A stretch of DNA of 64,000 bases from Escherichia coli (GTDB lineage: Bacteria; Pseudomonadota; Gammaproteobacteria; Enterobacterales; Enterobacteriaceae), in NCBI RefSeq assembly GCF_003018255.1, contig NZ_CP027440.1; one strand, written 5' to 3'. How positions within the stretch are numbered: the stretch's first letter is position 1; every line of letters starts with the position of its first letter. The position numbers and the translations under genes were made by a program. Shown piece by piece: positions 4,981 to 24,075 of the stretch. The notes below the pieces were generated by a model. The model was not told where the DNA came from, made no database searches, and worked only from the letters and a program-made list of their open reading frames with translations.

Positions 4981-5085
4981 ATCACAGTTAATAAAGCAAA
5001 AACATTATGGACAAGTGAATTAATCAGATAGTTCAAGCACCTTGAGATTCATTGTATTCATATTTCAGAATAACGGATTATTACA

Positions 5086-6300
5086 ATGCCCATCCGACTT
5101 AATACCATTCCCGACGCAGAACCCTATCCCGCACCGCCAGCCCGCATTAAATGGCTGTCAGCCTTATTACTGATGCTGTCTGTTGGTGTGGCAATAACCT
5201 CATTATTCGCCAGCGATGAACTGGCAAAAAACGGCCCATATTTCTGGGGGCTGGCCTGCGGCGTGCCTGCTTTTATCTGGTCACTGGTCGGTTCGGTGCG
5301 CTGGCTGGTATTTGTCACTCAACATATTCGTGCCGATGCCTGGAATCAACGTCGCGAAGAAGTCATTTTGCAGGAAACACGGCGGGGACGACGGGCGTTG
5401 CAGATACTCAGTTTTTCCGTACAAACCGCGCTGAATGGTGATTCCGTCGCAGAAACTACAACAGCATTTCTGGCGCGTCATCAGGTGTTGAATACTTACG
5501 CTGATTTGCGCGGAGAAGATACCGTGCGTCGCAGTGTCATTCCCGTATTAACCAATAAACCGGTTACCGGGCGTTTATCCGAAATTATTTCCCGCCTTTT
5601 TATTGATATCAGACCGCAATTGTTTCTGCTGCCCCCTGATTTTCATATCAACGTACTACTGGAAATTGATGCGCCGCTTTCAGGGGCCTCCGTGAGAACT
5701 ATCTGGCAGGACGAATGGCAAAAAGCCGGACTCCCCGAAGCCCGTCTGTTTTCTGCCCCGGAGCCGGGGCTGGCCGCCGTGGACGACTGGCTGGACAACT
5801 TTATTCAGGAAAAGGCCGTACTGCTGGTGATTTCCGTGCGTCTGGAACCGAAGAACCCGGAACGGACGGCAGAATCCGCCACCGCGCTGTTGCTGGCAAA
5901 CCGACTGACGCAAACCGCGCTGACGCCGCTGGCCCTGCTGCATCGTCCTGAACGTATCACAGATACGGAGATGATGGCGTCAGGCATTGCACAGGCGCTG
6001 GACTGGATGCCGGTGCAGCCAGATGCCATATCCGGCATGTGGACAGTCGAACTGAACAGGGAACAGCGCGCCTCGCTGCTGTCATCTAACCAGCCGTTTA
6101 CTCAGGAAGCCCTGATGTACGAGCTGGATGCCTTTCTGGGGTGCTCCGGACCGGCAGCGCCGTGGCTGTCCGTCGCTGCGGCAACGCTGGCGGCAATACA
6201 ATCACAACACCCCCAACTGACGCTCAGCGGCGTTCAGAACGGGCATTATTCATGGGCGACCATGGTGTCGCCATTCGTTTCCCCTCAGGAGGCATCATAG
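5086..6300 (+). CDS. T6SS-associated inner-membrane protein of unknown function (two N-terminal TM helices plus ~330-aa soluble domain)
   Basis: 404-aa ORF. Hydrophobic stretches WLSALLLMLSVGVAITSLFA and FWGLACGVPAFIWSLVGSVRWLVFV lie near the N-terminus. Composition is GC-rich like the T6SS core genes. Placed between the cargo module and tssM. Confidence 0.5.
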   Translation: MPIRLNTIPDAEPYPAPPARIKWLSALLLMLSVGVAITSLFASDELAKNGPYFWGLACGVPAFIWSLVGSVRWLVFVTQHIRADAWNQRREEVILQETRRGRRALQILSFSVQTALNGDSVAETTTAFLARHQVLNTYADLRGEDTVRRSVIPVLTNKPVTGRLSEIISRLFIDIRPQLFLLPPDFHINVLLEIDAPLSGASVRTIWQDEWQKAGLPEARLFSAPEPGLAAVDDWLDNFIQEKAVLLVISVRLEPKNPERTAESATALLLANRLTQTALTPLALLHRPERITDTEMMASGIAQALDWMPVQPDAISGMWTVELNREQRASLLSSNQPFTQEALMYELDAFLGCSGPAAPWLSVAAATLAAIQSQHPQLTLSGVQNGHYSWATMVSPFVSPQEAS

Positions 6301-6356
6301 TGGTTCCGGGATTAAACCGTCTCCGGCCCCGTTCGGTTTCAGGGCCTGCCATCGTC

Positions 6357-9300
6357 ATGACCGTGGCCGTTGTGGTTGCGCTTTGCACGTTTATTCACCG
6401 TAAACCGGCATTGCTGGGCGTTGAACCGGGTAGTTCACAGCAAATGTACTGGATGGCTGGCGTGATTGCCGCAGGTGTGGTCTTTCTGATTATCATGGGG
6501 GTTTATCATCTGCTGAACCGCCACGCTGCCGTACAGAGCTTTGAACTCCACAGACAGCTTGCCGCCGGAGATGACTATCGGGCGGTGACGACAAAGAAAG
6601 CCGACAGCCGTCATCCGGCAATGGTGGAACTCGCCGCCTTCCTGCGCGACCGCTACGGCCCATTCTGGCGGCGTAAAATCCGCCTGCTGCTGGTGACCGG
6701 CGAGCCTGAACAGGCAGAGGCCATCGCGCCGGGGCTGACCGGGCAACACTGGCTGGAGGGCGACCACACGGTGCTGATATATGGCGGCAGGCCATCTACA
6801 GAGCCTGATGTCGCGCTACTGACCGCCTTAAAAAAACTGCGCCGCAGCCGTCCGCTGGACGGCATCATCTGGCCGCTGACAGAAGAACAGAGCCGCCAGA
6901 CGGCGCAACTCGACAAAGGCTGGCGCGAACTGATAAACGGCGGTAAGCGACTCGGTTTTCAGGCTCCACTCTATTTGTGGCAGGTCTGTGACAACGGTGA
7001 TTATCAGACCGGACGCCCCCTGCAAAGCGTCGGCTGCCTGCTGTCGGAACGCTGTACCCCGGAACAACTGGCTGCAATGCTGGAAGCACAAACCCTGCCG
7101 CTGACGGAACAGGGCATGTCGCAGCTGCTTACCGATAACCGCCATGATTTCCTGCTGCGTCTGGCCCATACCCTTGCAGAGCGGGGTATCGCTCACTGGC
7201 AAAGTATCCTGAAACCGCTGCTGGCAGGCGGCGCATTTTCCTCCCTGCGCCTGCGTGGCCTGATGTTCAGCCCGCCGCTTACCGCCGTACCGGAAGCCGC
7301 ACCTCATGCGTGGCTGCCGTCACCGGTCTGGGCGGGCGTGACCGGCGATAACGCGCGGGGTCGCACGGTGGGCTTTCCGTGGCTGCGTATCACGCTGATG
7401 TCTGCTGTCTGCGTACTGGCGATATGGGGGGCCGGAATGACGACCTCGTTCTTCGCCAACCGCGCACTTGTTCAGGAAACCAGCATCCAGACGGCGCGTG
7501 CACTCGATATCCGTCTGCCGCTGTCTGAACAACTGGTGGCGCTGCATACCCTGCAGGGTGAACTGGAGCGCCTGCAGTACCGTATCCGGGAGGGTGCGCC
7601 GTGGTATCAGCGTTTTGGCCTTGAACGTAACCAGCAACTGCTCGCCGCCGCCTTTCCCGGCTATGCGCAGGCGGCAAACCGGCTGGTGCGCGACGTGGCC
7701 GTTGACCATCTGCAACAGCAACTGAATGCCTTTGTCGCGCTGCCGCCCAATAGTCCGCAGCGTACCGCCACCGGCGAACAGCGCTATAAGCAGCTTAAGG
7801 CATTGCTGATGACTTCCCGCCCGGAAAAGGCCGACGCTGCCTTTTTCAGTACCACGCTGATGGCAGATGACCTGCGCTATGCAGGTGTACCGGAAGGTGT
7901 GCGTCAGAGCGTGTTGCCGTCACTGCTGACCTTCTGGATGGCGAATCTGCCGGAACACCCACAGTGGAAAACTTCGCCGCCACCGGAACTGACCGGCGCA
8001 GTGCGCAAAATCCTGCTGCGCCAGATTGGTGTGCGCAATGCCGAAAACACTCTCTACCAGAACGTACTGCAACAGGTGTCCCGCAACTACGCCGATATGA
8101 CGCTGGCGGACATGACCGGGGATACGCTCACCGAATCTCTTTTCAGTACGGAGCAGACGGTGCCGGGGATGTTTACCCGTCAGGCGTGGGAAGGACAGGT
8201 CAGGGAAGCCATCGAGCAGGTGGTGACGGCGCGGCGCGAGGAAATCGACTGGGTACTCAGCGACCGCCAGCAGGATACCTCTGCGGATATCTCGCCGGAT
8301 ATGCTGCGTAACCGTCTCACTTCACGCTACTTTACCGACTTTGCCGGAAGCTGGCTGGCGTTTCTCAACAGCATTCGCTGGAAAAAGGAAGACTCGCTCT
8401 CCGGCATTCTCGACCAGTTGACGCTGATGGCCGATGCCCGCCAGTCACCGCTGATTGCGCTGACAGACACCCTCGCGTGGCAGGCGGCGGCTGGCAGGGA
8501 AAACCGTGGCCTGTCAGACTCGCTGGCGAAATCGGCACAGGAACTGTTTAACGGCAAGGAGAAAACGCCGCAGCAATCCCGTGAAGGCGACGTGCCTGTC
8601 GGGCCGCTGGATAAAACCTTCGCGCCGCTGCTGCGGTTGCTTGGCGATAAGGCAGGAGGCGGCGACAGCCAGCTGAGCCTGCAGACCTACCTCACCCGAG
8701 TCACCCGCGTGCGCCTCAAACTGCAACAGGTGACCAACGCCCCTGACCCGCAGGAGATGACCCAGCAACTGGCGCAGACGGTCTTACAAGGCAAAACCGT
8801 TGACCTTACCGACACCCGCGACTATGGCAGCCTGATAGCCGCCAGTCTGGGTGAAGAGTGGAGTGGCTTCGGTCAGGCGCTGTTCGTCCGCCCGGTGGAG
8901 CAGTCATGGCGGCAGGTGCTGACGCCTGCGGCAGACAGCCTGAACCGCCAGTGGCAGCGGGCGATTGTCAGCCACTGGGATCAGGACTTCGCTGGTCGCT
9001 ACCCGTTCAAAGCCTCACAAAACGATGCCTCCCTCCCCCTGCTGGCGCAGTACCTGCGCGATGACGGGCGCATCAACCAGTTTATCGCCGCCAATCTTTC
9101 CGGCGTACTGAAACGTGAAGGCCGCTACTGGGTGGCTGACGCCATGAACACGCAGGGGCTGACAGTCAATCCGGACTTTATTCGCGCCCTGAACCGCCTG
9201 CGCGATGTGGCCGATACCGCCTTTGCCAGCGGCGATGCAGGGATACATTTTGAACTGCGGGCAAAACCGGCGCGCGACGTGATGAAGACGCATCTGGTGA

Positions 9301-9683
9301 TTGACGGGCAGGAGCTGGAATATTTCAACCAGAAGGAACGCTGGCAGCGTTTTAACTGGCCGGATGAACAGTGGCAACCCGGCGCATCGCTGAGCTGGAC
9401 CAGTACGCAGGCGATGGAACGCATACTGGCGGATTATCGGGGAAGCTGGAGCCTTATTCGCCTGCTGGAACAGGCGCAGGTGACACCGGTGGACAGCAGT
9501 ACCTTTAAAGTGGTGTGGAAAGCGCAGGACGGCCTGCCGCTGAATTACCTGCTGCGGGTTGAACAGGGTAAAGGGCCGCTGGCGCTGCTGGAACTGAAAA
9601 ACTTCCGCCTGCCGGGACAGGTGTTCCTGACCGGCAGGAGTATGAAGGATGCGGAAGAATACGGGGAAGACGCCGATGAGTGA
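6357..9683 (+). CDS. tssM: TssM (IcmF-family) T6SS membrane-complex protein
   Basis: ~1100 aa. Two TM segments at the N-terminus, a third around WLRITLMSAVCVLAIWGAGM, then a long C-terminal domain. Start is uncertain (GTG 6300 or ATG 6357; the track ORF begins at 6141). Stop overlaps the tssA start. Confidence 0.8.
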   Translation: MTVAVVVALCTFIHRKPALLGVEPGSSQQMYWMAGVIAAGVVFLIIMGVYHLLNRHAAVQSFELHRQLAAGDDYRAVTTKKADSRHPAMVELAAFLRDRYGPFWRRKIRLLLVTGEPEQAEAIAPGLTGQHWLEGDHTVLIYGGRPSTEPDVALLTALKKLRRSRPLDGIIWPLTEEQSRQTAQLDKGWRELINGGKRLGFQAPLYLWQVCDNGDYQTGRPLQSVGCLLSERCTPEQLAAMLEAQTLPLTEQGMSQLLTDNRHDFLLRLAHTLAERGIAHWQSILKPLLAGGAFSSLRLRGLMFSPPLTAVPEAAPHAWLPSPVWAGVTGDNARGRTVGFPWLRITLMSAVCVLAIWGAGMTTSFFANRALVQETSIQTARALDIRLPLSEQLVALHTLQGELERLQYRIREGAPWYQRFGLERNQQLLAAAFPGYAQAANRLVRDVAVDHLQQQLNAFVALPPNSPQRTATGEQRYKQLKALLMTSRPEKADAAFFSTTLMADDLRYAGVPEGVRQSVLPSLLTFWMANLPEHPQWKTSPPPELTGAVRKILLRQIGVRNAENTLYQNVLQQVSRNYADMTLADMTGDTLTESLFSTEQTVPGMFTRQAWEGQVREAIEQVVTARREEIDWVLSDRQQDTSADISPDMLRNRLTSRYFTDFAGSWLAFLNSIRWKKEDSLSGILDQLTLMADARQSPLIALTDTLAWQAAAGRENRGLSDSLAKSAQELFNGKEKTPQQSREGDVPVGPLDKTFAPLLRLLGDKAGGGDSQLSLQTYLTRVTRVRLKLQQVTNAPDPQEMTQQLAQTVLQGKTVDLTDTRDYGSLIAASLGEEWSGFGQALFVRPVEQSWRQVLTPAADSLNRQWQRAIVSHWDQDFAGRYPFKASQNDASLPLLAQYLRDDGRINQFIAANLSGVLKREGRYWVADAMNTQGLTVNPDFIRALNRLRDVADTAFASGDAGIHFELRAKPARDVMKTHLVIDGQELEYFNQKERWQRFNWPDEQWQPGASLSWTSTQAMERILADYRGSWSLIRLLEQAQVTPVDSSTFKVVWKAQDGLPLNYLLRVEQGKGPLALLELKNFRLPGQVFLTGRSMKDAEEYGEDADE

Positions 9684-11286
9684 ACTGTTGCAAAAGCTGA
9701 CCCGTAGCTGTTTTGCCGACCGGGACGCACTGGACTCGGCGCGAACACAGGCGGCGCTGTGGCAGACATGGCTGCTGCCGGTGACGGCAGATACGCCGGT
9801 CGGGGAAGACCCCGGCTACCACGACGATTTCCTGCGTATCCGCGACGAGATGAACAAACTTTCCGGCGCGGATACGGACCTTATCTGCCAGCTTGCCGAA
9901 TCCCTGCTGCTGACGCAGGCAAAAGACGTGCGCATCGCCACTTACTATATCTGGGCGCGACTGCACCGCGATGGCGAACGCGGACTGGCTGAGGGGCTGG
10001 CGCTGTTAGCCGGACTGGTGGAACGCTTCGGTGCGCAACTGCTGCCCTCGCGCCCGGCAAGCCGAAAAATGGCGCTGGAGTGGCTGGCAGGGGAAAAGAT
10101 GCTCGACAGCCTTGCCCGCTACCCGGAAGTGGCAAAAGAGGATTTTGCGAACATTGTTGCCGCTCTTAATCAACTGACGGTTTCCTTCACTGCATGGCCC
10201 GAAGACCAGCATTCCCCCTCCCTGATGCCGCTGATTAACGCGCTGGAATCACGTCTGGCGCAGTCGGGTGGGATGAACGCGGTGGTGCCGCAGAACAGCA
10301 GCGGCGTTCCGGCACCGTCTTCCCCGGTGGATGCGCCACAGGTACAGACCATCACTTCCGGGCGCGACCTGCTCGACCAGGCGAAAGTGCTGGCCCGTTA
10401 TCTGAACGAACAGCCGCAGGGCTGGCTTTCAGCACACCGGCTGATGAAAACCCTGCGCTGGGACACGGTGCATGAACTGCCGCCGGATGTGGACGGAAAA
10501 ACCCGGCTGGCCCCGCCGCGCACAGAATCACGCAACCAGCTTAAGCGGCTGTATGCTCAGCAGAACTGGACGGAACTGCTGGAGCAGGCCGACCTGATGT
10601 TCAGCACCGGCGTCAGCCATTTCTGGCTGGACATTCAGTGGTATCTGCATCAGGCGCTGACTAAGGCGGGCGCACCGTGGGACAGGTGGACAGCGGTTAT
10701 CCGTCAGGACCTGGCGTTACTACTGGAACGCCTGCCGGGGCTGGAAAATCTGGCATGGAACGACGGCACGCCGTTCGCCGATGAGTTGACGCGCAACTGG
10801 ATAGCGCAGCAGGTCATGATGCGGGAAGACGGCGCATGGCTTGCGGGGAAAGCCGCTGTACCGACAGACGACGCCACAAACGACGTACTGGCGCTGGAGC
10901 CGGAAGCGCTGGAGATGGCAGACAGTCAGGGCGTGGAAGCGGCGCTGGGCTGGATACAGACCCGTCCGGGCATCACCACGGCACGCCAGCGCCTGTTATT
11001 GCGACTGCTGATGGCGCGGGTGGCGGAACAGTACGGTAAAAACGAGATGGCGCTCCTGCTGCTGGAAGAACTGGATATCGCCGCACAGGGGCTGACGCTG
11101 ACGCAGTGGGAGCCGGACCTGCTGTTTGAGGTAAAAGCCCGACAGCTGAAACAGCTGCGCCTGCGGGCGCACCGCTATGCGGATAAAGCCCTGCTGAACC
11201 GAAAAATGGAAATCCTGCTGGGAACGCTGGTGACAATAGATCCGGTACGGGCAGCGGTATTGTGTGATACGCAACATAAGGACTGA
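9676..11286 (+). CDS. tssA: TssA (ImpA_N-domain) T6SS baseplate/cap protein
   Basis: N-terminal ImpA_N-like block (...LLPVTADTPVGEDPGYHDDFLRIRDEMNKL...). ATG at 9676 overlaps the tssM stop (ATGAGTGA); an alternative ATG lies at 9649. Confidence 0.8.
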   Translation: MSELLQKLTRSCFADRDALDSARTQAALWQTWLLPVTADTPVGEDPGYHDDFLRIRDEMNKLSGADTDLICQLAESLLLTQAKDVRIATYYIWARLHRDGERGLAEGLALLAGLVERFGAQLLPSRPASRKMALEWLAGEKMLDSLARYPEVAKEDFANIVAALNQLTVSFTAWPEDQHSPSLMPLINALESRLAQSGGMNAVVPQNSSGVPAPSSPVDAPQVQTITSGRDLLDQAKVLARYLNEQPQGWLSAHRLMKTLRWDTVHELPPDVDGKTRLAPPRTESRNQLKRLYAQQNWTELLEQADLMFSTGVSHFWLDIQWYLHQALTKAGAPWDRWTAVIRQDLALLLERLPGLENLAWNDGTPFADELTRNWIAQQVMMREDGAWLAGKAAVPTDDATNDVLALEPEALEMADSQGVEAALGWIQTRPGITTARQRLLLRLLMARVAEQYGKNEMALLLLEELDIAAQGLTLTQWEPDLLFEVKARQLKQLRLRAHRYADKALLNRKMEILLGTLVTIDPVRAAVLCDTQHKD

Positions 11287-12698
11287 TGGCAATGGGAACA
11301 GGCTACTTTCTGGTCAGGGGGGACAAAACCACCTGCGGCGGCAAAATTATTGAAGGCGCGGACGACCATACGATCATGGGTATCCCGCAGGCGCGGGATA
11401 TGGACCGGGTCACCTGCGGCAGATATCCGGGAATGTTTATTATTGTGGGCGGCGTTCCTGAAACAGATATTCACGGCAGGCTGATGGCGGGGACGCTGGA
11501 CAGTCAGAGCAGTTGCCCGTGTAAGGCACGGTTTATTGCGTCAATGATGGATGATACGTATGAGACGGATGACGGGGAAAGTGAAGCGGAACAACATGCG
11601 CAGTCGGCGAAAAAGGATCTGACTTCTGGTTCTGATTCATCCTCTGATGATGTAAAACTGGATTACAGAATTAAATTATCAGGTAATAAGATACTGACGC
11701 CACTGAATATACCTGATTATAAAGAAATGATTAGCGGTGGTAGTACGAAGAATACAGAAAAAATAGATTTTACCATCACAAATAAAGGCGATGAGGCTGA
11801 AGCGCTTTCTCTGGAAGTGCTTGATGGTAATGAAGTGATTTATAGTGAACGGCAGACCGGTAAATATTGTGATAAGGGAGAGCATGCCTGGCAATGGGAT
11901 GGCTACAGTAATCAAGGCATACTGGATACAACTAAGATAAAAAGCAAATCACTACTCGTAAGACTGATTGCTTTATGTGGTGATATGATGATAAAAGTTG
12001 ATTATCCATTGAAAAATGCTGCGAAAGAAGAAGAGTGGGTTGATGTAAAAGTTGACAGAAATAATAAAGTGGTCGATATAACATGGAGATTATCTGTTAA
12101 GGATAGCGGTACAAAAGGCAGTAACCCTGAGTTATCGCCAATACCTTATAGCGATTTAGTTAGTCTTACTAAAAATGGCGTGGAGTTTTACTGGTCACGA
12201 AATGGAAGTCGCGGCGGGGGAATTGGTGGTAATATCGTTACAGCGATTGGGGTTTTTAAAGTAAATGTAAAGGCTGAGATAAATATTACTCCATCTATGC
12301 GAACTTTTGATTTGATATCATCGTTAGATCCAGATATGCAGTCGTCGGTAAGTCTTTTGGGGTTTGAAAAAATATACCATAACTATGGTGGCTATTATAA
12401 TAACAGCAAGGATGAAATAAAGGCTCTTCTATATAGTAATGAAAGATATAAATGGGATAGTGCTCATGAGATGGGACATAAAGTTATGGATAAATATGGT
12501 TCTGAATCATGGACACATAAGGGGACATCCACGCGGGGTCAAAGTACCATCCCTAATACTCCAATGCCATCTTCAGGAGAGATTGATATAATGAAATATG
12601 CAGATAGCTATGCACCTGATAGATATAAGAGATTGGTCGCGGCAGATGAAGATGTTCAGGCATTGATCTGGTTGAGCAGGGTGAGTTTTAATGATTAG
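11286..12698 (+). CDS. PAAR-like domain protein with C-terminal HExxH (zincin-like) putative toxin domain
   Basis: N-terminus (GDKTTCGGKIIEGADDHTIMGIPQARDMDRVTCG...) resembles PAAR/DUF4150 spike-tip domains. C-terminal region is AT-rich and contains HEMGH. ATG overlaps the tssA stop (TGATG). Confidence 0.6.
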   Translation: MAMGTGYFLVRGDKTTCGGKIIEGADDHTIMGIPQARDMDRVTCGRYPGMFIIVGGVPETDIHGRLMAGTLDSQSSCPCKARFIASMMDDTYETDDGESEAEQHAQSAKKDLTSGSDSSSDDVKLDYRIKLSGNKILTPLNIPDYKEMISGGSTKNTEKIDFTITNKGDEAEALSLEVLDGNEVIYSERQTGKYCDKGEHAWQWDGYSNQGILDTTKIKSKSLLVRLIALCGDMMIKVDYPLKNAAKEEEWVDVKVDRNNKVVDITWRLSVKDSGTKGSNPELSPIPYSDLVSLTKNGVEFYWSRNGSRGGGIGGNIVTAIGVFKVNVKAEINITPSMRTFDLISSLDPDMQSSVSLLGFEKIYHNYGGYYNNSKDEIKALLYSNERYKWDSAHEMGHKVMDKYGSESWTHKGTSTRGQSTIPNTPMPSSGEIDIMKYADSYAPDRYKRLVAADEDVQALIWLSRVSFND

Positions 12699-12713
12699 AA
12701 TAATTGTTTTTTA

Positions 12714-13115
12714 TTGTTTTTTTTGAGTGGGTGTACTTCACAAAAAGAGTATTCCAATATAGTCAGGATTGAGAATAGATGCTCCTCAGATATCGATGTC
12801 TTTATTCAGGGATATGTTTCCGGTTCTACGCTGATTTATCAGCATAATATACACTTGCCAGTTGGTGATAGTGATGTATTAGTATATTTTTCCACGGCAG
12901 ATATTGATGATGGTTTTAAATATGAGGGGGCATTCATGATATATAAAGATAGCCGCGGTGAATTGGATTATCCATTCACCATTTCATTGTCAGGGCGCGA
13001 AAAAAAATTTGGGAAGAATGACTTAATTAGATTATCACGAGATATTTCAACAAAAGACGACAGAAAATACGGAGTTATAAGATATATAATCGACAGTCAG
13101 GAAATTTGCCCGTGA
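12714..13115 (+). CDS. Small AT-rich ORF, candidate immunity protein; 5' end probably disrupted by a homopolymer frameshift
   Basis: The track ORF starts at a TTG. An upstream ATG at 12691 (overlapping the PAAR stop) encodes MIRIIVFYCFF and then hits a stop after a T8 tract. One extra T would give MIRIIVFYCFFLSGC..., a lipoprotein signal with lipobox. Confidence 0.4.
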   Translation: MFFLSGCTSQKEYSNIVRIENRCSSDIDVFIQGYVSGSTLIYQHNIHLPVGDSDVLVYFSTADIDDGFKYEGAFMIYKDSRGELDYPFTISLSGREKKFGKNDLIRLSRDISTKDDRKYGVIRYIIDSQEICP

Positions 13116-15085: not shown

Positions 15086-16128
15086 CCGACCGGCTGGCCC
15101 CGGATATTGCGCGGATCAATTTTTACCGTTTTTGCCAGTTGCTGGAACAGAGCCCGCAGAACGCGCCGCTGGGCAGTACCGACAGCCCCGCCACCGATGC
15201 GGTGCGCTTTCGTCCTCATCCAGGTATGGGCTTTCCGGTCAGCGAGTTAAAAAACGTTGAACGTGACGTGGGCAATCCCGACGCGCCCCCCACGGTGCGC
15301 ACCACTTTTCTCGGCCTGTACGGCGTGGATTCGCCGCTGCCAACCGCCTATCTGGACTACATTACCCAGCGTCATGACGGACATGACGCAGTGATGGCGT
15401 TTCTCGATATTTTTAACCATCGCTTTATTACTCAGTACTACCGCATCTGGCGCAAATATAACTACCCGGCGTCGTTTGAAGCAGGTGCCGTGGATGACAT
15501 TTCCCGTTGTCTGCTGGGACTCATCGGGCTGGGTATTCCCGGCAGCGAGAACCATATCGCCACGCCGGTATCCCGTTTTCTGGCCCTGCTCAGCGTGATG
15601 CGCCTGCCGACGCGCACGGCGGAAGGCGTTACGGCACTGGTGGGACTGCTTGCCCCGCTGACGAAAGCGACGGTGGTGCCTCATGATCCGCAGCCTGTAA
15701 TTCTCCCGGCCCCTGCGGGTCTGTCAAAAAATTCACGCATCAGCCTGAAAACGCGAACGCTGCTGGGGCGTACCGGTACCGACGTCAACAGCCAGTTGCT
15801 GCTGAAACTGTATACCGAAGATGCCGCAGAAGCGCGTGGCTGGCTGCCCGGCGGGCAACTGCACAGCGATTTGCTGGTGCTGCTGCGCGTTTATCTGGGC
15901 TGGCGCTGTCAGGCCCGTCTGCAACTGACGCTGCCCGTCAGCCTGTTGCCTGCTGCCCGGCTGGGAAAACAGCGTGTACAGATTAGCCGTACCGGCATCC
16001 TTCGCGCCTCCTTTGCCGCGCCCGCGACCGGAACAGTGACGGTCAGTCTGGGGCGTTATCAGGGATTAATACCCGCTTTTTCCATTCGTAACAGGGAGAG
16101 TATGACTCATGTTTCCTATTCGTTTTAA
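15049..16128 (+). CDS. tssG: TssG baseplate protein
   Basis: N-terminal ...INFYRFCQLLEQ... is typical of TssG. ATG at 15049 follows SD AGGAAAG and overlaps the tssF 3' end. Confidence 0.8.
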   Translation: MDRASQPARTGLTDRLAPDIARINFYRFCQLLEQSPQNAPLGSTDSPATDAVRFRPHPGMGFPVSELKNVERDVGNPDAPPTVRTTFLGLYGVDSPLPTAYLDYITQRHDGHDAVMAFLDIFNHRFITQYYRIWRKYNYPASFEAGAVDDISRCLLGLIGLGIPGSENHIATPVSRFLALLSVMRLPTRTAEGVTALVGLLAPLTKATVVPHDPQPVILPAPAGLSKNSRISLKTRTLLGRTGTDVNSQLLLKLYTEDAAEARGWLPGGQLHSDLLVLLRVYLGWRCQARLQLTLPVSLLPAARLGKQRVQISRTGILRASFAAPATGTVTVSLGRYQGLIPAFSIRNRESMTHVSYSF

Positions 16129-16645
16129 ACGTCCGGCGTTGCTCTGTATGGCGATGCTGACGGTTGTTCTGAGTGGCTGCGGGCTGATTCAGAAAGTGGT
16201 GGATGAATCGAAAAGCGTGGCCTCAGCCGTTTTCTACAAACAAATCAAAATACTGCATCTCGATTTCTTCTCCCGCAGCGCCCTGAATACGGATGCGGAA
16301 GATACGCCGCTTTCCACGATGGTGCATGTCTGGCAACTGAAAACCCGCGAAGATTTTGATAAGGCGGATTATGACACCCTGTTTATGCAGGAAGAGAAGA
16401 CGCTGGAGAAGGACGTACTGGCAAAACACACCGTCTGGGTAAAACCTGAAGGCACGGCATCCCTGAATGTGCCGCTGGATAAAGAGACGCAGTTTGTCGC
16501 CATTATTGGGCAGTTTTATCACCCGGATGAAAAAAGCGACAGCTGGCGTCTGGTGATCAAAAGGGACGAACTGGAGGCCGACAAGCCGCGCTCGATTGAA
16601 CTGATGAGAAGCGACCTGCGACTGCTGCCTCTCAAGGATAAATAA
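16109..16645 (+). CDS. tssJ: TssJ outer-membrane lipoprotein
   Basis: 178 aa. Signal peptide with lipobox (MLTVVLSGCGL). Size and position between tssG and tssE. Confidence 0.8.
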   Translation: MFPIRFKRPALLCMAMLTVVLSGCGLIQKVVDESKSVASAVFYKQIKILHLDFFSRSALNTDAEDTPLSTMVHVWQLKTREDFDKADYDTLFMQEEKTLEKDVLAKHTVWVKPEGTASLNVPLDKETQFVAIIGQFYHPDEKSDSWRLVIKRDELEADKPRSIELMRSDLRLLPLKDK

Positions 16646-16648
16646 CCG

Positions 16649-17077
16649 ATGGCGACACCTTCCTTATATGAAATGCTGACGTTCAGTTTCAGCGGCGAGT
16701 TACCGCTGGAACAGGTCAGTGAGCGGGATCAGCTTATCCTTTCCGTGATGGACAATATGCAACGCATTATCAACTGTCGGGCAGGCACACTGGCGCATTT
16801 GCCGGATTACGGTCTGCCGGATCTCAGCCTGATCCATCAGGGGATGGCTGCGGGTATTCATAGCCTGATGCGCCAGATTGAAGAAACGCTGCTGCGTTAT
16901 GAACCACGCCTGAATCAGATACAGGTGGAGTTACTGCCCCAGCCCGGTCCGGGGCATCTTAATTACCTGATCCACGCGCAGCTTCCCGATACCGGCTGGA
17001 TACGCTTTGATGGCGTATTTTCTCCGGAAGGACGAATTGTTCTGCGTCATCTCAAACAACAGGAGCGGGCGTACTGA
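16649..17077 (+). CDS. tssE: TssE (gp25-like) baseplate protein
   Basis: 142-aa protein of gp25/GPW25 size class. Stop overlaps the next gene start (TGATG). Confidence 0.75.
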   Translation: MATPSLYEMLTFSFSGELPLEQVSERDQLILSVMDNMQRIINCRAGTLAHLPDYGLPDLSLIHQGMAAGIHSLMRQIEETLLRYEPRLNQIQVELLPQPGPGHLNYLIHAQLPDTGWIRFDGVFSPEGRIVLRHLKQQERAY

Positions 17078-18453
17078 TGGCAAGTAACGCGAATTTTATC
17101 AGCCAGTTCGTCATGGGCGGCGATCCCTGTACTTATAAGGAATCCGGTGAACTGCAGGCTGAAATGAGTAAACTGACTCACCCGGCCCGACCGGATGTGG
17201 ACTGGCGTCAGGTGGAAAAACTCTGCCTCGCGCTGTTCCGGCAAAATGGCGTGGAACTACAGACGCTGGTCTGTTACGTGCTGGCAATAACCAGACGGCA
17301 GGGGCTGGCAGGGATGGCAGACGGACTCGGTTCACTGGATATACTGCTCCAGCGCTGGGCTGACTTCTGGCCGGTACAGGTACATTCCAGAATATCACTG
17401 CTCAGCTGGGTCACAGAAAAAATGCAGCAGGCACTGAGAACGCTGGATATTCAGTATCAGGATCTGCCGCAGATCTACCGTTGTGTACAGCATCTTTCCG
17501 CCATCGAAACCACGCTGCAACAGTGTGAACTGTGGCATATGACGAAGCTGGACGTATTGTCCGGGCAGTTTCGCAATGCGGCTCTGCGTCTGGAACGGCT
17601 GGCGCCTCAGGGAGCGGAAACCATTATCACTCCCCCTGAATTACCCCGCCGGGAAATGAATCAACCGAAAAAGTCAGAGGAAAGTCCACAGCCGGTTTTT
17701 GCAACCAGATCCGTTCAGCAAAACGATAAGGATGCCAGTCCACCCGTGCCATCCCCTGAAATCTCCCGGCAGCGGACATGGCCGATATTTATGGCCGGAA
17801 TGGTTGTGATGGCCGGTCTCGGCGGAACAGGATTATGGGGCTGGTCGCAGCTTAATCAGCCGGACGCGCTAATCCAGCGAATACAACTGTCTGTCATGCC
17901 GTTGCCGCAGTCGCTGGAGAGCGGCGAACTGGCAAAGCTGGATGTAAAGGATAAGGCGCTGCTGGCTCAGGACAGAACAATTGCGGCAAGTCAGATGCAA
18001 CTGGAGCAGTTAAACAAATTGCCTGCCCGCTGGCCACTGGAGCAGGGATATCGCCAGCTACGCCAGCTTGATGCCCTGTGGCCGGATAATCCTCAGGTCA
18101 GGGCGCTGAACGCGCAGTGGCGCAAACAGCGGGAGCTGAGCGCCCTGTCTGCTGAGGCACTGAATGGCTATGCTCAGGCGCAGAGCCAGCTACAGCGCCT
18201 GTCGGCGCAGCTGGATGCACTGGATGAACGTAAGGGGAGATATCTGACCGGTTCGGAACTAAAAACGGCGGTGTACGGCATCCGGCAGTCGTTAAAGGAG
18301 CCGCCGCTGGAAGAACTGCTTCGGCAACTGGAAGAGCAAAAACAGACCGGAGAGGTTTCGCCAACGCTGTTGACGCAAATTGATACCCGGTTAAATCAGT
18401 TGTTGAATCGCTATGTCATTTTACTGGATACGAAGGTGGAACAAAGTCAGTAA
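17077..18453 (+). CDS. ImpA_N-domain, membrane-anchored T6SS accessory protein (TagA/VasL-like)
   Basis: N-terminal ImpA_N-like region, one hydrophobic helix (WPIFMAGMVVMAGLGGTGLWGW), and a C-terminal Q/L/E/R-rich region with heptad-like character. Last gene of the + strand cluster. Confidence 0.6.
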   Translation: MASNANFISQFVMGGDPCTYKESGELQAEMSKLTHPARPDVDWRQVEKLCLALFRQNGVELQTLVCYVLAITRRQGLAGMADGLGSLDILLQRWADFWPVQVHSRISLLSWVTEKMQQALRTLDIQYQDLPQIYRCVQHLSAIETTLQQCELWHMTKLDVLSGQFRNAALRLERLAPQGAETIITPPELPRREMNQPKKSEESPQPVFATRSVQQNDKDASPPVPSPEISRQRTWPIFMAGMVVMAGLGGTGLWGWSQLNQPDALIQRIQLSVMPLPQSLESGELAKLDVKDKALLAQDRTIAASQMQLEQLNKLPARWPLEQGYRQLRQLDALWPDNPQVRALNAQWRKQRELSALSAEALNGYAQAQSQLQRLSAQLDALDERKGRYLTGSELKTAVYGIRQSLKEPPLEELLRQLEEQKQTGEVSPTLLTQIDTRLNQLLNRYVILLDTKVEQSQ

Positions 18454-18692: not shown

Positions 18693-18728
18693 AAACCGCA
18701 ATGTGTTCTACAAATTGCGGTTTTTTTG
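18693..18728 (+). terminator. Rho-independent terminator ending the T6SS operon
   Basis: Inverted repeat AAACCGCAAT / ATTGCGGTTT followed by TTTTTTT. Confidence 0.6.
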
Positions 18729-18753
18729 TATTTAAAATCTTTGTTCGCTGAAC

Positions 18754-19710
18754 TCACAACACGTTTTTTATCTCCCTTCCTGCGAAGTAATCAATTATCG
18801 ACTGGGCAACGTGTATCCCGGTTTGCTGGTATGACTCAACGGTGGCGGCCGCGATATGCGGCGTTGTAATGATATTTTTGGCATGTAGCAGTGGGCTAAA
18901 TTGCGCCAACGGTTCAGAGCTAAACACATCCAGCGCCGCAAACACATTTCGTTCTTCAATCACCTGAAGTAAAGCGCCCTCATCCAGCAACTTTCCCCTT
19001 GCGGCATTGATGATCAGAGCACCATTGCGCATCATCGACAAATATTTATGACTAATGAAGTTCTCCAGCTCAGAAGAAAAAGGCAAAAGAACAATGATGA
19101 CATGCGACTGCATAAAGATATCTTCAATTGATACAAACTGAACTCCAGCTTTGTCAGCAACCTGATAGTCGGGTTGTTTGTCAAAAGCTAAAAGCTCAAC
19201 ATCAAAACCAGATAACCTTTTCGCCAGTGTTTTGCCAATATTGCCGTAGCCAAGCAGGCCAATACGTTTACCTTGTAACTCGCAGCCATGCGACTCACCC
19301 CAATAACCATTTTGCATTGCATGATAGCTACCGGGGATATTTCTCATGCTCGCAAAAATAAGACCGATGATAAATTCCGCGACTGCGTTTGAATTAATCC
19401 CAACAGCATTATTGACCACAATACCTGATTGTCGAGCCGTATGAAGATCAATATTATCAATCCCTGTCCCGAATCTCGATATTATTTTCACTCCTGGTAG
19501 TCGCGATAACGTATCCGCTTGATAACAATCTTTTCCGGCAATGACTGCGCAAATAGATTCTCGTAATACTGTGGATTCTGATTTAACCAGATGCTCCACA
19601 TTATTCTTGATAATAAGGTTAAAATGATTTTCTCTTAGCAGCTTGCTGGCAGAAACACAACGCGCTGAAAAGCTGGGAACGGTGACCAGAACGTTTTTCA
19701 TAGCTGACAC
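18754..19710 (-). CDS. D-isomer-specific 2-hydroxyacid dehydrogenase family protein
   Basis: 318 aa. NAD-binding motif GLLGYGNIGKTLAKRL. Low-GC gene. Confidence 0.7.
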   Translation of the reverse strand: MSAMKNVLVTVPSFSARCVSASKLLRENHFNLIIKNNVEHLVKSESTVLRESICAVIAGKDCYQADTLSRLPGVKIISRFGTGIDNIDLHTARQSGIVVNNAVGINSNAVAEFIIGLIFASMRNIPGSYHAMQNGYWGESHGCELQGKRIGLLGYGNIGKTLAKRLSGFDVELLAFDKQPDYQVADKAGVQFVSIEDIFMQSHVIIVLLPFSSELENFISHKYLSMMRNGALIINAARGKLLDEGALLQVIEERNVFAALDVFSSEPLAQFSPLLHAKNIITTPHIAAATVESYQQTGIHVAQSIIDYFAGREIKNVL

Positions 19711-19771
19711 TCACATCAATGAACGCCACCCCAAAAGATGGCGTGACCGGTTACTGTTTTATATTCTAAAA

Positions 19772-20368
19772 TTATGAGTTTGCTTTAATACCGAGCGCAC
19801 CTCCTGGATGATATAAGCCGAAATCAGCACGAGTAAACTTTTTCAATTCGGAGAGCGCAAGCGCCACCGCATCACCAACAACCAGAACGACTGTTGATGA
19901 GCATGACGGCGCTAAACCTAAATTATCCGCCTCACTTTTTACGGGAATTTCAACGGATAAATCACAACTTATCGCAAGCGATGAGCGATGACTGCGGGTA
20001 AAGGAGATCAAATAATTACCCATTTTTTTCAGACTAGGTAGTGTTGCCAGGATTTCTGTCGTCTCACCACTGTTTGAAATAAGAATAACAACATCATCTT
20101 TCGCCACCATCCCAAGATCGCCGTGTACGGCTTCAGTACCGTGAACAAAAAACGAGGGAGTTCCAGTGCTGGCAAATGTTGCGGCGAGTTTTCGGGCAAT
20201 AATACCGGACTTACCGACACCAATAAAAACAACTTTCCCCTGACAAGACTGTAATACTTTAATTAAATTTGCGACCTCCGAAAGGGGGGAATCAATAACT
20301 TCTTCAACTGCTTTATGTTCGTTACGCATAAAATGTTTAATGAGATGGATAAGATCCGTACTGTTCAT
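19772..20368 (-). CDS. SIS-domain sugar-phosphate isomerase (KpsF/GutQ-like, no CBS domains)
   Basis: 198 aa. SIS-like block VVFIGVGKSGIIARKLAATFASTGTPSFFVH...ILISNSGETTEIL. Confidence 0.65.
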   Translation of the reverse strand: MNSTDLIHLIKHFMRNEHKAVEEVIDSPLSEVANLIKVLQSCQGKVVFIGVGKSGIIARKLAATFASTGTPSFFVHGTEAVHGDLGMVAKDDVVILISNSGETTEILATLPSLKKMGNYLISFTRSHRSSLAISCDLSVEIPVKSEADNLGLAPSCSSTVVLVVGDAVALALSELKKFTRADFGLYHPGGALGIKANS

Positions 20369-20370
20369 TT

Positions 20371-21546
20371 TTATTTTCCTTGATTAATATTTTTAATTAC
20401 ACTCGCAAGACGCGTAAGCCCCATATATAATTTTTCTCGACCGCAGGCCAGGTTCAGACGAAGGTAGCCCTCCCCCTCCGTTCCATAGACATTCCCCGCC
20501 ATAATGCCCACTTTGCCTTCATGAATTAATCGACTGTAGAATTCATCAAAGGAATAACCAATAGCAGAGCAATCTATCCACGAAAAATAGCAACCATCAG
20601 CTGGCCTTACGATCAATTCTGGAGTATTTTCGTTCAGATACTGCTGGGTGAATTGAATGTTAGAGGCGATATGTGCCTTTAATGACTTTAACCATCCCTC
20701 ACATTCATTATAGGCAACAATGGTTGCAATTATATTCAGTACTGATGGGGAGTTTACGAAATCGCGATACCTCGATATCGTTCTGAACTTATGATTATAA
20801 TCCTCGTCAGTTGAAATCAGATACGATCCTGTTAGCGCAGGAACATTAAATGTTTTCGATATCGAGTTAAATACCACTACTTTTTCTTTTTTTATTTTAA
20901 GCGCGGATGTAAAGCTACGATTAAAAACAAAATCACTATGAATTTCATCTGAACATAACCAGACATTATGCCTTGTACAGCTTGTAGCGATTTTAAGCAG
21001 TTCTTCTTCCGACCAGACTGTTCCTGTCGGATTATGAGGATTACATAATAACACCATCTTTGCGCTTTTAATCTTAAGATCAAAATCTTGCCAGTTGATA
21101 GCGTAGCCCCCCTCATTTTTTATAATCAAAGAGGCTGTCAGAATATTTCGCTCGCTATGTTTAATTACATCAAAAAATGCATTATAGACAGGTGTAAAAA
21201 CGAGAATATTATCACCATGCGATGTCAATAACTCTATTGCCTTTGCAATAGAGTACATCACACTGGGGCTATAGGTTATCCATTCAGGTTTAATGTCTGT
21301 TTGATATTGTTGATGATACCAGTTTACTATCGCATTCAGATATTCACCATGTTGCCAACGACTGTACCCTAAAATCGGGTGTTCCAGGCGTTTTTTTAAT
21401 GCTCTGGTGATAGCGTCTGGTATCGGAAGATCCATATCTGAAATAGAGAAGGGTAATACATCTTTTACACCAAATCTGTCCTCGCAAAAGTCCCATTGGG
21501 TGCAATATGTTCCTTTACGGGAAATAGGAGTATTAAAAATATCCAT
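20371..21546 (-). CDS. PLP-dependent aminotransferase class I/II, MalY/PatB-like C-S lyase
   Basis: 391 aa. Motif CNPHNPTG and a lysine-containing SISKTFN block typical of this family. Confidence 0.7.
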   Translation of the reverse strand: MDIFNTPISRKGTYCTQWDFCEDRFGVKDVLPFSISDMDLPIPDAITRALKKRLEHPILGYSRWQHGEYLNAIVNWYHQQYQTDIKPEWITYSPSVMYSIAKAIELLTSHGDNILVFTPVYNAFFDVIKHSERNILTASLIIKNEGGYAINWQDFDLKIKSAKMVLLCNPHNPTGTVWSEEELLKIATSCTRHNVWLCSDEIHSDFVFNRSFTSALKIKKEKVVVFNSISKTFNVPALTGSYLISTDEDYNHKFRTISRYRDFVNSPSVLNIIATIVAYNECEGWLKSLKAHIASNIQFTQQYLNENTPELIVRPADGCYFSWIDCSAIGYSFDEFYSRLIHEGKVGIMAGNVYGTEGEGYLRLNLACGREKLYMGLTRLASVIKNINQGK

Positions 21547-23126
21547 CAGCGCATCCCCATGTAGTTATCCATATCCCTACGCAGGGCGATGACTTTAGTG
21601 CCGATAATGACTTGTAGGGTATTTTGATCAAGTTTAACAACCGCAATCCCGCCAGCTCTTTTTATTGCAACTTCATCAATCAATCCCATATCTGCGATTG
21701 TTAAACGTAAACGAGTTACGCAATTATCCAGTGACTTAATATTCTCTTTACCACCAAGTGCCTTAACCATCTGCTCCGCTGCTTGCAACTCTGATTTATC
21801 AAGAGTTGGGGTATCCGCTATAGCCGTATCTTCGTGAGCGTTCAGCGTGACAGGACTGGACTCTTCACGTCCTACGGTCATCAGGTTAAATTTGAGAATG
21901 GTCCAACGGAACACAAAGTAATAAATGAAGAAATAGGCCACTTCAACACACACCGCGATCGGCCAACCTGTTCTTGTGCCACGCAATACGCCAAAGCTAA
22001 TAAATTGAATCAGATCGCCAGTAAATCCCATCTTCACGCCCATATATGGCAAGACCATGTTGGCGAATCCATTCATAAAGGCATGGAAGACAAACAGCAG
22101 CGGACTGACAAATAAGAACAGAAATTCAATCGGTTCGCTGACGCCACCAATAATAACCGTAAGCACACCGGAAATAAGCAATGCTTTGATAGCCTTTCTG
22201 TTTTGAGCATGAGCAGTGCGATACATGGCCAGTGCAGCACCAGCCAGACCGTACTGAATCATCAGTTTGCCCTGCTCCATTTTCCCCGCCAAATCCAGCG
22301 GAATGACCGCATTCTCTTTGACGTACGCCATAAACATGTTCAGGGTGCCGTAATACTCTTCGCCGCCAATCACAGCCGAACCGCCGATTGGCGTAAAGCG
22401 GAACACTGACGTCACCAGATGGTTTAAGCCAAAAGGAATCGTCACACGTTCGGCAACTGCATAGAAGAAATAACCAACAGGACCGGAAGTTGATATCCAG
22501 TGGCCAATGAGCATGAAGAGATTGAAAAATGGCGGCCAGATAAAAGGAATGATCAGACCAAATCCACTCATCACAATCAGTGTAATGATAGGCACCAGAC
22601 GTGGGCCGCTATAAAAACCTAATGATTCTGGAATGCGTAAATTAACGATCTTTTTATACATGCTGGCGACTAATAACCCAGCAACAATTCCCCCTAACAC
22701 GCTGGTATTGTAGGACTGGATCCCCAGAATGATGTTTTGCCCATGTGTCGACATTTGGTCAGCAACGACCAATAAGTCGTGCTGTTTAAGATAAAAGTTC
22801 GTTCCCAGATGCATCGCCATAAAACCAATTAAGCCAGAAAAAGCACCATAGGCTTTATCCTCTTTATCTTTTAATAATCCTAAGGGAATCGCTATCGCAA
22901 ACAATACAGGTAAATTAACAAAGGCAAACAAACCAAGACTAACAATGAAATCAAGTATGGTTTTAATTATTGGAATAGCCAGAAATGGAATTAACTTTGC
23001 CATATCATCACTGGCTAAACCACTTCCCAGCCCTAGCATCATGCCACATACACTTAGCAGAGCAATGGGATACATAAATGCCTTCCCCAGGCTCTGAAAA
23101 AAACTCCAGGCTTTCTTTTGTTTCAT
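21546..23126 (-). CDS. PTS glucose-family EIICB component
   Basis: 526 aa. Polytopic membrane domain plus C-terminal EIIB with NCVTRLRL phosphorylation-site motif. Confidence 0.8.
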   Translation of the reverse strand: MKQKKAWSFFQSLGKAFMYPIALLSVCGMMLGLGSGLASDDMAKLIPFLAIPIIKTILDFIVSLGLFAFVNLPVLFAIAIPLGLLKDKEDKAYGAFSGLIGFMAMHLGTNFYLKQHDLLVVADQMSTHGQNIILGIQSYNTSVLGGIVAGLLVASMYKKIVNLRIPESLGFYSGPRLVPIITLIVMSGFGLIIPFIWPPFFNLFMLIGHWISTSGPVGYFFYAVAERVTIPFGLNHLVTSVFRFTPIGGSAVIGGEEYYGTLNMFMAYVKENAVIPLDLAGKMEQGKLMIQYGLAGAALAMYRTAHAQNRKAIKALLISGVLTVIIGGVSEPIEFLFLFVSPLLFVFHAFMNGFANMVLPYMGVKMGFTGDLIQFISFGVLRGTRTGWPIAVCVEVAYFFIYYFVFRWTILKFNLMTVGREESSPVTLNAHEDTAIADTPTLDKSELQAAEQMVKALGGKENIKSLDNCVTRLRLTIADMGLIDEVAIKRAGGIAVVKLDQNTLQVIIGTKVIALRRDMDNYMGMR

Positions 23127-23157
23127 GTGGGTTATCTCATATAAATGTTATATATAA

Positions 23158-23982
23158 TTAGTCCATTAATACTTTGGTACGAATAGAGAGATATAGTTTT
23201 TCTTCTAAAATTAATTCATATTTAAAAGTGGCATACAGATACCGTTCAATTTCATGAATTGCGCGCTGTAACAGGATGTCCTTTTCAAGAAACTGTTCAT
23301 AGATATCACCAATATCTTTCTGTTTTATTTTTTCATTGCATAACACGCGACTTGAAAAATATTTAAGGTGCATCATAAATCTGGAATAGTTAAATGAACT
23401 TCTGTCCACCTTTCTGTTATAAACAACTTCAATAAGCTCCGTGATTATTTGCGACAACTCAATAATCCGTACTGATTCATAATCAACTGAATTTTCATAA
23501 TTATTTAAAATATGCAATGCTATAAAACCAATCTCATCATCAGGAAGTTGAACGCTGAATTGCTCATTAATGATAGTTAATGCATCGCGACTTATCGCAT
23601 ACTCTGCTTTGTACAACGCTTTGATTTCATCAAGGAAAACATTATTAATTTGTATACCTGAAACTACTCGGGATATTGCATTCGAAATGTGATCCGCAAG
23701 AATCAATAGTAGCGATGGATTGAGATTTTTTTCGAGATTTTTCTCCGCATATTGCACTATTTTTTCGGCAACAAAAATATACTCAATATCCACATGTTCA
23801 ATCAATTTGTAGAGTTTATTTTTTTGTTCGTTTCTGACATAAAAAATCCGGTTAGCCGGATGTTCAGGGACCGACATTCCATATTTTTTGTTATAACCGA
23901 CGCCAGGTCCAGAAATGATAACCTCCTGTCCATTCATCGATGCCTGTACACAATTATTGTTCATGACTTTTTCGATGATCAT
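23158..23982 (-). CDS. BglG/LicT-family transcription antiterminator (CAT RNA-binding domain plus PRD domains)
   Basis: Start taken at MIIEKVMNNNCVQASMNGQEVIISGPGVGYNKK (CAT domain signature) with SD GGAG 7 nt upstream. The track ORF extends 19 codons further upstream, into the leader hairpin. Confidence 0.75.
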   Translation of the reverse strand: MIIEKVMNNNCVQASMNGQEVIISGPGVGYNKKYGMSVPEHPANRIFYVRNEQKNKLYKLIEHVDIEYIFVAEKIVQYAEKNLEKNLNPSLLLILADHISNAISRVVSGIQINNVFLDEIKALYKAEYAISRDALTIINEQFSVQLPDDEIGFIALHILNNYENSVDYESVRIIELSQIITELIEVVYNRKVDRSSFNYSRFMMHLKYFSSRVLCNEKIKQKDIGDIYEQFLEKDILLQRAIHEIERYLYATFKYELILEEKLYLSIRTKVLMD

Positions 23983-23993
23983 TCCATGACTCC

Positions 23994-24075
23994 AAAAAAA
24001 AAGGCAAGGCACGTCAGAAGTAATAATTACTTCAAACATTGCCTTGCCTGATTTAACAGTTACAAGATGATTAAC
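23994..24075 (-). promoter_or_regulatory. Leader intrinsic terminator with overlapping RAT-like element upstream of the antiterminator gene
   Basis: On the minus strand: AGGCAAGGCA, a loop containing the palindrome GAAGTAATAATTACTTC, TGCCTTGCCT, then T9, directly abutting the SD. Upstream TTGTAACTGTTAAATCAGGCAAGGCA resembles the RAT consensus. Confidence 0.5.

Follow-up and report, generated by a model that had tools for sequence, protein, structure and literature searches.

The window analyzed here, a 64,000-nucleotide stretch of Escherichia coli DNA (contig NZ_CP027440.1), contains a T6SS cluster in which the N-terminal domain of TssA recurs in the product of a second gene. The question that this locus raises is whether the second gene encodes another TssA or an accessory protein of the TagA/VasL type, as the first-pass annotation had proposed, and, in the latter case, on which side of the membrane its C-terminal domain lies.

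The final gene of the cluster and its setting

The gene in question occupies positions 17077–18453 of the plus strand, as defined by the list of open reading frames, Pfam matches and alignment with the TagA protein of EAEC, and encodes 458 amino acids from an ATG start codon. Identical coordinates are annotated for this ORF by RefSeq in near-identical genomes, where its product bears the name 'VasL domain-containing protein' (WP_021516405.1, from a locus that is 99.3% identical). Immediately 5' of it on the same strand lies tssE (16649–17077), coding for the gp25-like baseplate wedge (PF04965, 50.5 bits). Reading of the junction (17061–17079, plus strand) reveals a Shine-Dalgarno sequence, AGGAG (17061–17065), followed by the ATG of the tagA-type gene, which overlaps the tssE stop codon by one base (TGATG), an arrangement that makes translational coupling of the two genes probable.

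On the 3' side, the T6SS operon ends with a terminator-like hairpin followed by a U-run at 18693–18730 of the plus strand. This hairpin was first spotted by eye and then confirmed by RNA folding, which gave an energy of -13.8 kcal/mol and a z of -3.95, with none of 200 shuffled sequences folding equally well; a simple promoter and terminator scan near the tagA-type gene missed it and produced nothing useful. Past the hairpin the G+C content, until then about 0.54, drops to 0.40, and sugar-metabolism genes in convergent orientation follow. The hairpin, the drop in G+C and the convergent metabolic genes on its 3' side together indicate that the cluster ends with the tagA-type ORF, in agreement with the earlier statement that a 458-aa protein stands at the cluster end.

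According to Pfam, the cluster begins with the C-terminal part of ClpV/TssH and continues with VgrG, an Amidase_2-domain protein, two ORFs without assignment and TssM, after which come a class-A TssA, a 470-aa PAAR protein, a small ORF, TssF, TssG, TssJ and TssE; a scan with NCBIfam models of the unassigned ORFs near the tagA-type gene returned no usable match. The tssA gene of this series (9649–11286, plus strand) combines ImpA_N (PF06812, 68.9 bits) with VasJ (PF16989, 259.5 bits) and would provide the expected binding partner of TagA, its product matching the PDB entries 6rju (580 bits), 4yo3 and 4yo5, all of which are structures of EAEC TssA. A long class-A TssA with ImpA_N and VasJ and a tagA-type gene therefore coexist in one T6SS cluster. 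The gene order is syntenic with that of the Sci-1 cluster of EAEC 042 and, judged from its sequence, the cluster belongs to the Sci-1 (T6SS-i2) type of E. coli chromosomal T6SS, a subclass also called 'T6SS1' that is typical of ExPEC phylogroup B2 (PMC12282107). Megablast places the island in the E. coli chromosome adjoining amiC-argA-recD-recB-ptrA-recC, a site different from that of the island in strain 042.

Of 5426 complete E. coli genomes, 1337, or about a quarter, carry the tagA-type gene with an identity of at least 95%, among them those of strains 536, ATCC 25922 and APEC O2-211; at the same identity and with at least 80% query coverage it is present in 1316 complete genomes. These counts bear on the idea that the gene, lying as it does at the island's edge, is decaying or no longer functional, which might be suggested by its last place in the cluster beside the drop in G+C, by the truncation of some database members and by the orthologue in EAEC 042, which appears in RefSeq as pseudogene fragments. 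Against this idea, the ORF is intact both here and, in reality, in strain 042, its coverage is preserved in the 1316 genomes just mentioned, its motifs are strongly conserved across genera and its probable translational coupling to tssE also speaks for a working gene, so that we consider decay to be extremely improbable.

Domain architecture and relationship to TssA

From N- to C-terminus, the protein consists of ImpA_N, a flexible linker of about 55 residues that is rich in proline, a single hydrophobic helix and VasL, which is entirely helical. ImpA_N (PF06812) is recognized by Pfam at residues 24–112 (17146–17412, plus strand) with 45.3 bits against a cut-off of 26.9, within a helical N-terminal domain that extends approximately from residue 20 to residue 175. 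The linker, delimited by composition and pLDDT, covers the 57 residues from 176 to 232 (17602–17772, plus strand); it is rich in P, Q, E and S, with proline accounting for 19% of its residues. The all-α VasL domain (PF12486) occupies residues 306–448 (17992–18420, plus strand) and matches positions 2–145 of the 147 in the profile with 134 bits against a cut-off of 27.3. Homology to ImpA_N or VasL had been predicted from the letters of the sequence, and both profiles now score above the Pfam gathering thresholds; the ImpA_N-like character of the N-terminus is further sustained by its paralogy to the N-terminus of the cluster TssA (27% identity, E 1e-8).

The AlphaFold2 model, built on an alignment of 42 sequences, has a mean pLDDT of 74 and reproduces this organization, with a confident helical N-domain at residues 20–175 (pLDDT about 85–93), a disordered linker at 181–232 (pLDDT below 50), one helix at 235–259 and a confident all-helical C-domain at 298–457. 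When the full model was compared with the PDB using Foldseek, the best match was the N-terminal domain of TssA (6hs5, probability 1.00), the only others being non-significant matches to TPR or solenoid proteins; a sequence search of the PDB with the 458-aa protein retrieved no relative, its lone match (E 0.45) being spurious.

The shared ImpA_N domain and the weak, partial NCBIfam matches to TssA could be taken to indicate a genuine second TssA, redundant as cap or priming factor with that encoded by the cluster tssA. Such a possibility appears very remote, since the scores with the NCBIfam TssA equivalogs are far below their cut-offs (59.8 versus 230.1 for TIGR03362 and 26 versus 160.85 for TIGR03363), with only the N-terminal part aligning. 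In addition, Pfam finds no VasJ (PF16989) match in the 458-aa protein, which is devoid of the Nt2-CTD part and has instead a membrane helix and a VasL domain, and the cluster already has a complete class-A TssA. The NCBIfam collection holds no model for TagA or VasL, and its matches to TssA, IglI and anti-sigma proteins, all sub-threshold, were not accepted as evidence of membership.

We are instead highly confident that the gene codes for TagA (TsmA/VasL/EvfB), an accessory protein of the E. coli Sci-1-type (T6SS-i2) system. The TagA/VasL-type reading of the first-pass annotation is upheld by the ImpA_N and VasL profiles, by the presence of a separate class-A TssA and by full-length homology to EAEC TagA, with which the protein shares 33% identity over 443 residues (E 5e-69), end to end.

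One element of the original description did not survive, namely the heptad-like nature of the C-terminal tail. Its reported richness in Q, L, E and R is correct, for the last 202 residues contain 18.8% L, 13.9% Q, 8.9% A, 7.4% R and 7.4% E. Nevertheless, the periodicity of L, I, V, M and F at 3.5 residues is not significant over residues 257–458, where 16% of shuffled sequences reach the observed power, and it is marginal over residues 300–450 (3.5% of shuffles). The C-part also contains no proline-free window of 28 residues having at least 75% hydrophobic a/d positions. A coiled-coil or heptad-repeat tail was consequently rejected, the model showing ten packed helices of short to medium length; as modeled, the tail is a multi-helix bundle or solenoid and no long coiled coil.

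A database search retrieved 728 homologues of the protein, from the genera Escherichia, Salmonella, Photorhabdus, Yersinia, Citrobacter, Cronobacter, Serratia and Pectobacterium, and the 120 matches listed possess both ImpA_N and VasL, with the exception of a few that are fragmentary or chimeric. The family is small, given that the profile of the C-part identifies just 314 cluster representatives among 1.84 billion. Its ImpA_N-helix-VasL layout is kept in distant representatives; combinations of VasL with VipB, TssK or LysR were judged to be chimeric assemblies or fragments and not informative fusions.

Across 42 homologues, the ImpA_N motif K32-L-T-H-P-A-R-P-D-V-D-W43 is invariant or nearly so and is accompanied by a second conserved motif, G58-x-E-L-Q62. 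The same alignment shows F238 and G241 to be invariant in the membrane helix, together with L379..L382-D-E..G387-x-Y-x-T-x-S-E-L-K396 and E412-E..R416 in the VasL domain. These invariant clusters in ImpA_N, helix and VasL are candidate interfaces. The length of the linker between ImpA_N and the helix is variable, with the start of the helix ranging from residue 193 to residue 339 across the family, whereas the distance from the helix to VasL is constant at about 70 residues, a combination that fits a flexible cytoplasmic tether.

Membrane topology of the VasL domain

The 458-aa protein has exactly one hydrophobic segment, a Gly/Ala-rich helix at residues 234–256 (WPIFMAGMVVMAGLGGTGLWGW; 17776–17844, plus strand) that is recognized from its Kyte-Doolittle profile and in the AlphaFold2 model and constitutes a putative membrane anchor. 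The earlier claim of one transmembrane helix is thus borne out, as far as the number of hydrophobic segments goes, by both the profile and the model, with the reservation that the hydrophobicity of the segment is borderline in this allele: the Kyte-Doolittle maximum over 19 residues is 1.51 and glycine makes up 25% of the segment, which ranks among the weakest hydrophobic helices of a family having a mean value of about 1.8–1.93. Topology was evaluated with a set of 63 full-length representatives sharing less than 50% mutual identity. The hydrophobic segment is present throughout this set, with a Kyte-Doolittle value of at least 1.6 in 86% of its members, and its position is conserved in these 63 sequences as well as in the 42 homologues.

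Two compositional features of the 63 representatives are informative about the orientation of the helix. The first is the distribution of K and R in the flanking stretches of 15 residues, which has a mean of 2.8 on the N-side versus 1.25 on the C-side; positive residues are more numerous on the N-side in 48 representatives, less numerous in 3 and equal in 12. The second feature is cysteine, the frequency of which is 1.08 per 100 residues before the helix versus 0.047 after it, and 58 of the 63 proteins have no cysteine at all in the approximately 200 residues past the helix, a result with which a closer set of 107 homologues agrees. As a control we used TssA, the cytoplasmic paralogue, represented by 115 homologues from the same genera, in which cysteine amounts to 1.21 per 100 residues in the first 230 positions and to 0.65–0.74 in the C-part, with just four of the 115 proteins being without cysteine in their last 200 residues. 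The VasL part thus has roughly one fifteenth of the cysteine frequency seen in the cytoplasmic C-part of TssA. Among the proteins encoded in the window, mature TssJ and the periplasmic portion of TssM are likewise Cys-free. Cysteine depletion is a compositional argument that concerns related sequences, and the helix of the present allele is a weak one.

The combination of one spanning helix, positive-inside bias and cysteine avoidance leads us to favour a topology with the N-terminus inside and the C-terminus outside, in which the conserved VasL domain would be periplasmic; we put the chances of this prediction at about even. With the same degree of assurance, the TagA/VasL family may be considered truly bitopic in the inner membrane, unlike its original description as 'cytosolic, membrane-associated'.

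That description forms the starting point of the main alternative, according to which the protein belongs to the same family and has the same stopper or anchor role but is monotopic, the helix being embedded in the inner membrane from its cytoplasmic side, or resting on that side, while ImpA_N and VasL are both located in the cytoplasm, where VasL could also contact TssA or the sheath. EAEC TagA is said to be cytosolic with tight membrane association, and the helix of our allele is, as already seen, borderline hydrophobic and Gly-rich. Furthermore, an interaction has been reported between fragments from the C-termini of TssA and TagA of V. cholerae (PMC7545191), which would require both fragments to be on one side of the membrane and counts against a periplasmic VasL. 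Conversely, the AlphaFold2 helix is continuous, without a hairpin, and its length of about 25 residues is sufficient to span the membrane, while the clear hydrophobicity of the helix in most of the family, the 48 to 3 bias in flanking charges and the rarity of cysteine in comparison with the C-part of TssA are all unfavourable to a monotopic arrangement. We assign to this arrangement a probability that falls slightly short of even.

Should the VasL domain indeed be periplasmic, its invariant motifs, LDxLDE..G.Y.T.SELK and EE..R, could serve to bind a partner in that compartment, for instance peptidoglycan, TagL or the portion of TssM located there. Such binding would help to account for the resistance of the distal end to force and for its support of contraction towards it.

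Proposed role and comparison with known systems

Proteins of class B (TsmA) are defined by ImpA_N with a hydrophobic domain and a VasL C-terminus (Schneider et al. 2019, PMC6745524). The role ascribed to this class is that of a membrane anchor which halts sheath polymerization and keeps the sheath extended (PMC6745524, PMC6450956, PMC7896307). In V. cholerae, TagA is located at the membrane, forms spots of estimated hexamers at the distal ends of full-length sheaths and prevents their excessive polymerization; in its absence the sheaths are long, bent or detached, and when overproduced it prevents their assembly (PMC6745524). EAEC TagA brings TssA to the envelope, and in the delta-tagA mutant the distal ends slide, the static extended phase is lost and fewer non-canonical contractions occur (Szwedziak and Pilhofer 2019, PMC6450956). 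More generally, systems with long TssA use the TagA anchor (Bernal et al. 2021, PMC7896307). It is on the basis of this class literature and of homology that we assign the same role of sheath stopper and anchor to the protein of the window, which by analogy would act as does the studied EAEC TagA, 33% identical to it.

The mechanism that we propose would begin with the hydrophobic helix, which, as inferred from the EAEC and V. cholerae homologues, would anchor the protein to the inner membrane. Flexibly tethered to this anchor, the ImpA_N domain might then capture the TssA-capped end of the sheath, upon which polymerization would stop and the sheath would be held in the extended state. Loss of the protein would be expected, from what is seen with its homologues, to produce over-long, bent or detached sheaths and to render killing less efficient while leaving the system alive.

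A different emphasis would see in the protein less a mechanical clamp than a negative regulator, in competition with TssA and restricting the number of sheaths. The inspiration for it comes from V. cholerae, where overproduction of TagA prevents sheaths from assembling and keeps TssA at the initiation sites, the authors suggesting that TagA removes or blocks TssA (PMC6745524). At native levels, however, TagA is seen at the distal end of sheaths that have reached full length, and without it the extended waiting state is shorter (PMC6745524, PMC6450956). We regard a chiefly regulatory function as unlikely, although the two roles are not exclusive.

The ExPEC-type T6SS-i2 cluster is of the 'long TssA plus TagA' kind, in which extended sheaths are expected to be held for long and not to be fired at once. 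The TagA family, its domain layout, its stopper and anchor role and the RefSeq name of the gene are already known, and as an annotation the present assignment is of little importance; the wider interest lies in the VasL domain, in its topology as well as its function.

The closest system for comparison is that of EAEC, in which TagA (EC042_4550) is encoded by an intact ORF of 455 aa located downstream of tssE in E. coli 042 (NC_017626.1, 4884070–4885437); RefSeq splits this ORF into three pseudogene fragments, but it is in fact intact. EAEC TagA has ImpA_N at residues 8–109 and VasL at residues 306–449, and shares with the 458-aa protein of the window these two domains, a single hydrophobic segment around residue 235 and an origin in a cluster of the tssM-tssA...tssF-tssG-tssJ-tssE type; within the Sci-1 cluster its gene stands at the tssE-distal end. 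The two loci differ in that our gene overlaps the tssE stop codon, whereas in 042 four annotated genes, including those for a GIY-YIG nuclease and a 3'-5' exonuclease, separate tssE from tagA; the EAEC helix is also more hydrophobic, with a Kyte-Doolittle value of 1.99 versus 1.51. A literature search for EC042_4550 and a statement of its topology found nothing.

V. cholerae TagA, or VasL (VCA0121), belongs to the same class as the protein of the window and has given its name to the Pfam VasL family. Its gene follows vasK (tssM), unlike the gene described here, which follows tssE. In sequence the V. cholerae protein is a very distant one, its identity with EAEC TagA amounting to 19.3% (PMC6745524). 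Class-A TssA (TsaC), represented in the window by the gene at 9649–11286 and in the PDB by 6rju, 4yo3 and 4yo5, has the N-terminal ImpA_N domain in common with our protein but is soluble and has neither a membrane helix nor VasL, its VasJ part (Nt2 plus CTD) forming a dodecameric cap.

The Pfam description of the VasL family reads 'EvfB, or VasL' and thereby connects the protein with EvfB of Edwardsiella tarda. In E. coli K1 RS218, a T6SS deletion has been described as extending 'from evfB to hcp1' (PMC6730261), so that the name is already in use for a gene at the end of the ExPEC cluster; our literature search found no mechanistic study of RS218 evfB. Finally, TagB and TagJ, the partners of short TssA, also stabilize the extended sheath through TssA (PMC7896307), but they are unrelated small soluble proteins that lack ImpA_N, membrane helix and VasL, and they act at the baseplate instead of the distal end.

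Low-G+C segments within and beyond the cluster

The interval from vgrG to tssM (window 3867-6300) has a low G+C content of 0.417 and carries three ORFs, coding for a protein of 244 aa with an Amidase_2 domain, an overlapping product of 149 aa and a protein of 404 aa that belongs to no family. Other hypothetical genes occupy this site between vgrG and tssM in CU42ET-1, a related and nearly identical strain. The segment is probably a variable bay for effector and immunity genes, in which the Amidase_2 protein represents a candidate effector targeting peptidoglycan. Another low-G+C stretch (0.43, window 11286-13115) contains a PAAR protein of 470 aa, whose motif is confined to the first ca. 70 residues while the remaining ca. 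400 are unassigned, followed by an ORF of 133 aa without family; the two are candidates for a PAAR-linked toxin and its immunity gene.

Immediately past the T6SS cluster lies a convergent block, also of low G+C (0.39-0.46), which spans window 18754-24000 and continues beyond. Its genes code for a 2-hydroxyacid dehydrogenase, a SIS isomerase of the KpsF/GutQ type, an aminotransferase of the MalY/PatB type, a PTS EIIC and a PRD protein, and are followed by the core genes amiC, argA, recD, recB, ptrA and recC. This block looks like a second accessory module of the same island as the T6SS cluster.

Start and cysteine distribution of TssM

The mechanical ORF of tssM begins with a GTG codon at window 6141 and overlaps by 160 bases (window 6141-6300) the preceding ORF of 404 aa. 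Since the TssM of the related strain is shorter in RefSeq (1109 aa), the real start probably lies downstream of this GTG.

All six Cys residues of the window TssM (6141-9683) fall within its first 424 residues, leaving none in the periplasmic part of ca. 700 residues. TssJ (window 16109-16645) has no Cys after that of its lipobox. Both regions thereby show the same avoidance of Cys as the VasL portion of TagA-family proteins.

The tagA gene and its surroundings in E. coli 042

RefSeq breaks up EC042_4550, the EAEC tagA that has been studied by experiment, and lists three 'pseudogene' fragments under the labels ImpA_N, POTRA and VasL. ORF and domain checks in E. coli 042 show an unbroken reading frame of 455 aa with ImpA_N and VasL (NC_017626.1 4884070-4885437, corresponding to 5071-6438 of the Sci-1 locus L003), and the RefSeq split looks like an annotation artefact.

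In the window, tssE and tagA overlap. In E. coli 042, four annotated genes lie between them (L003:864-5016), of which two code for hypothetical proteins, one for a member of the GIY-YIG nuclease family and one for a 3'-5' exonuclease. The arrangement of strain 042 has the appearance of a later insertion into the operon.
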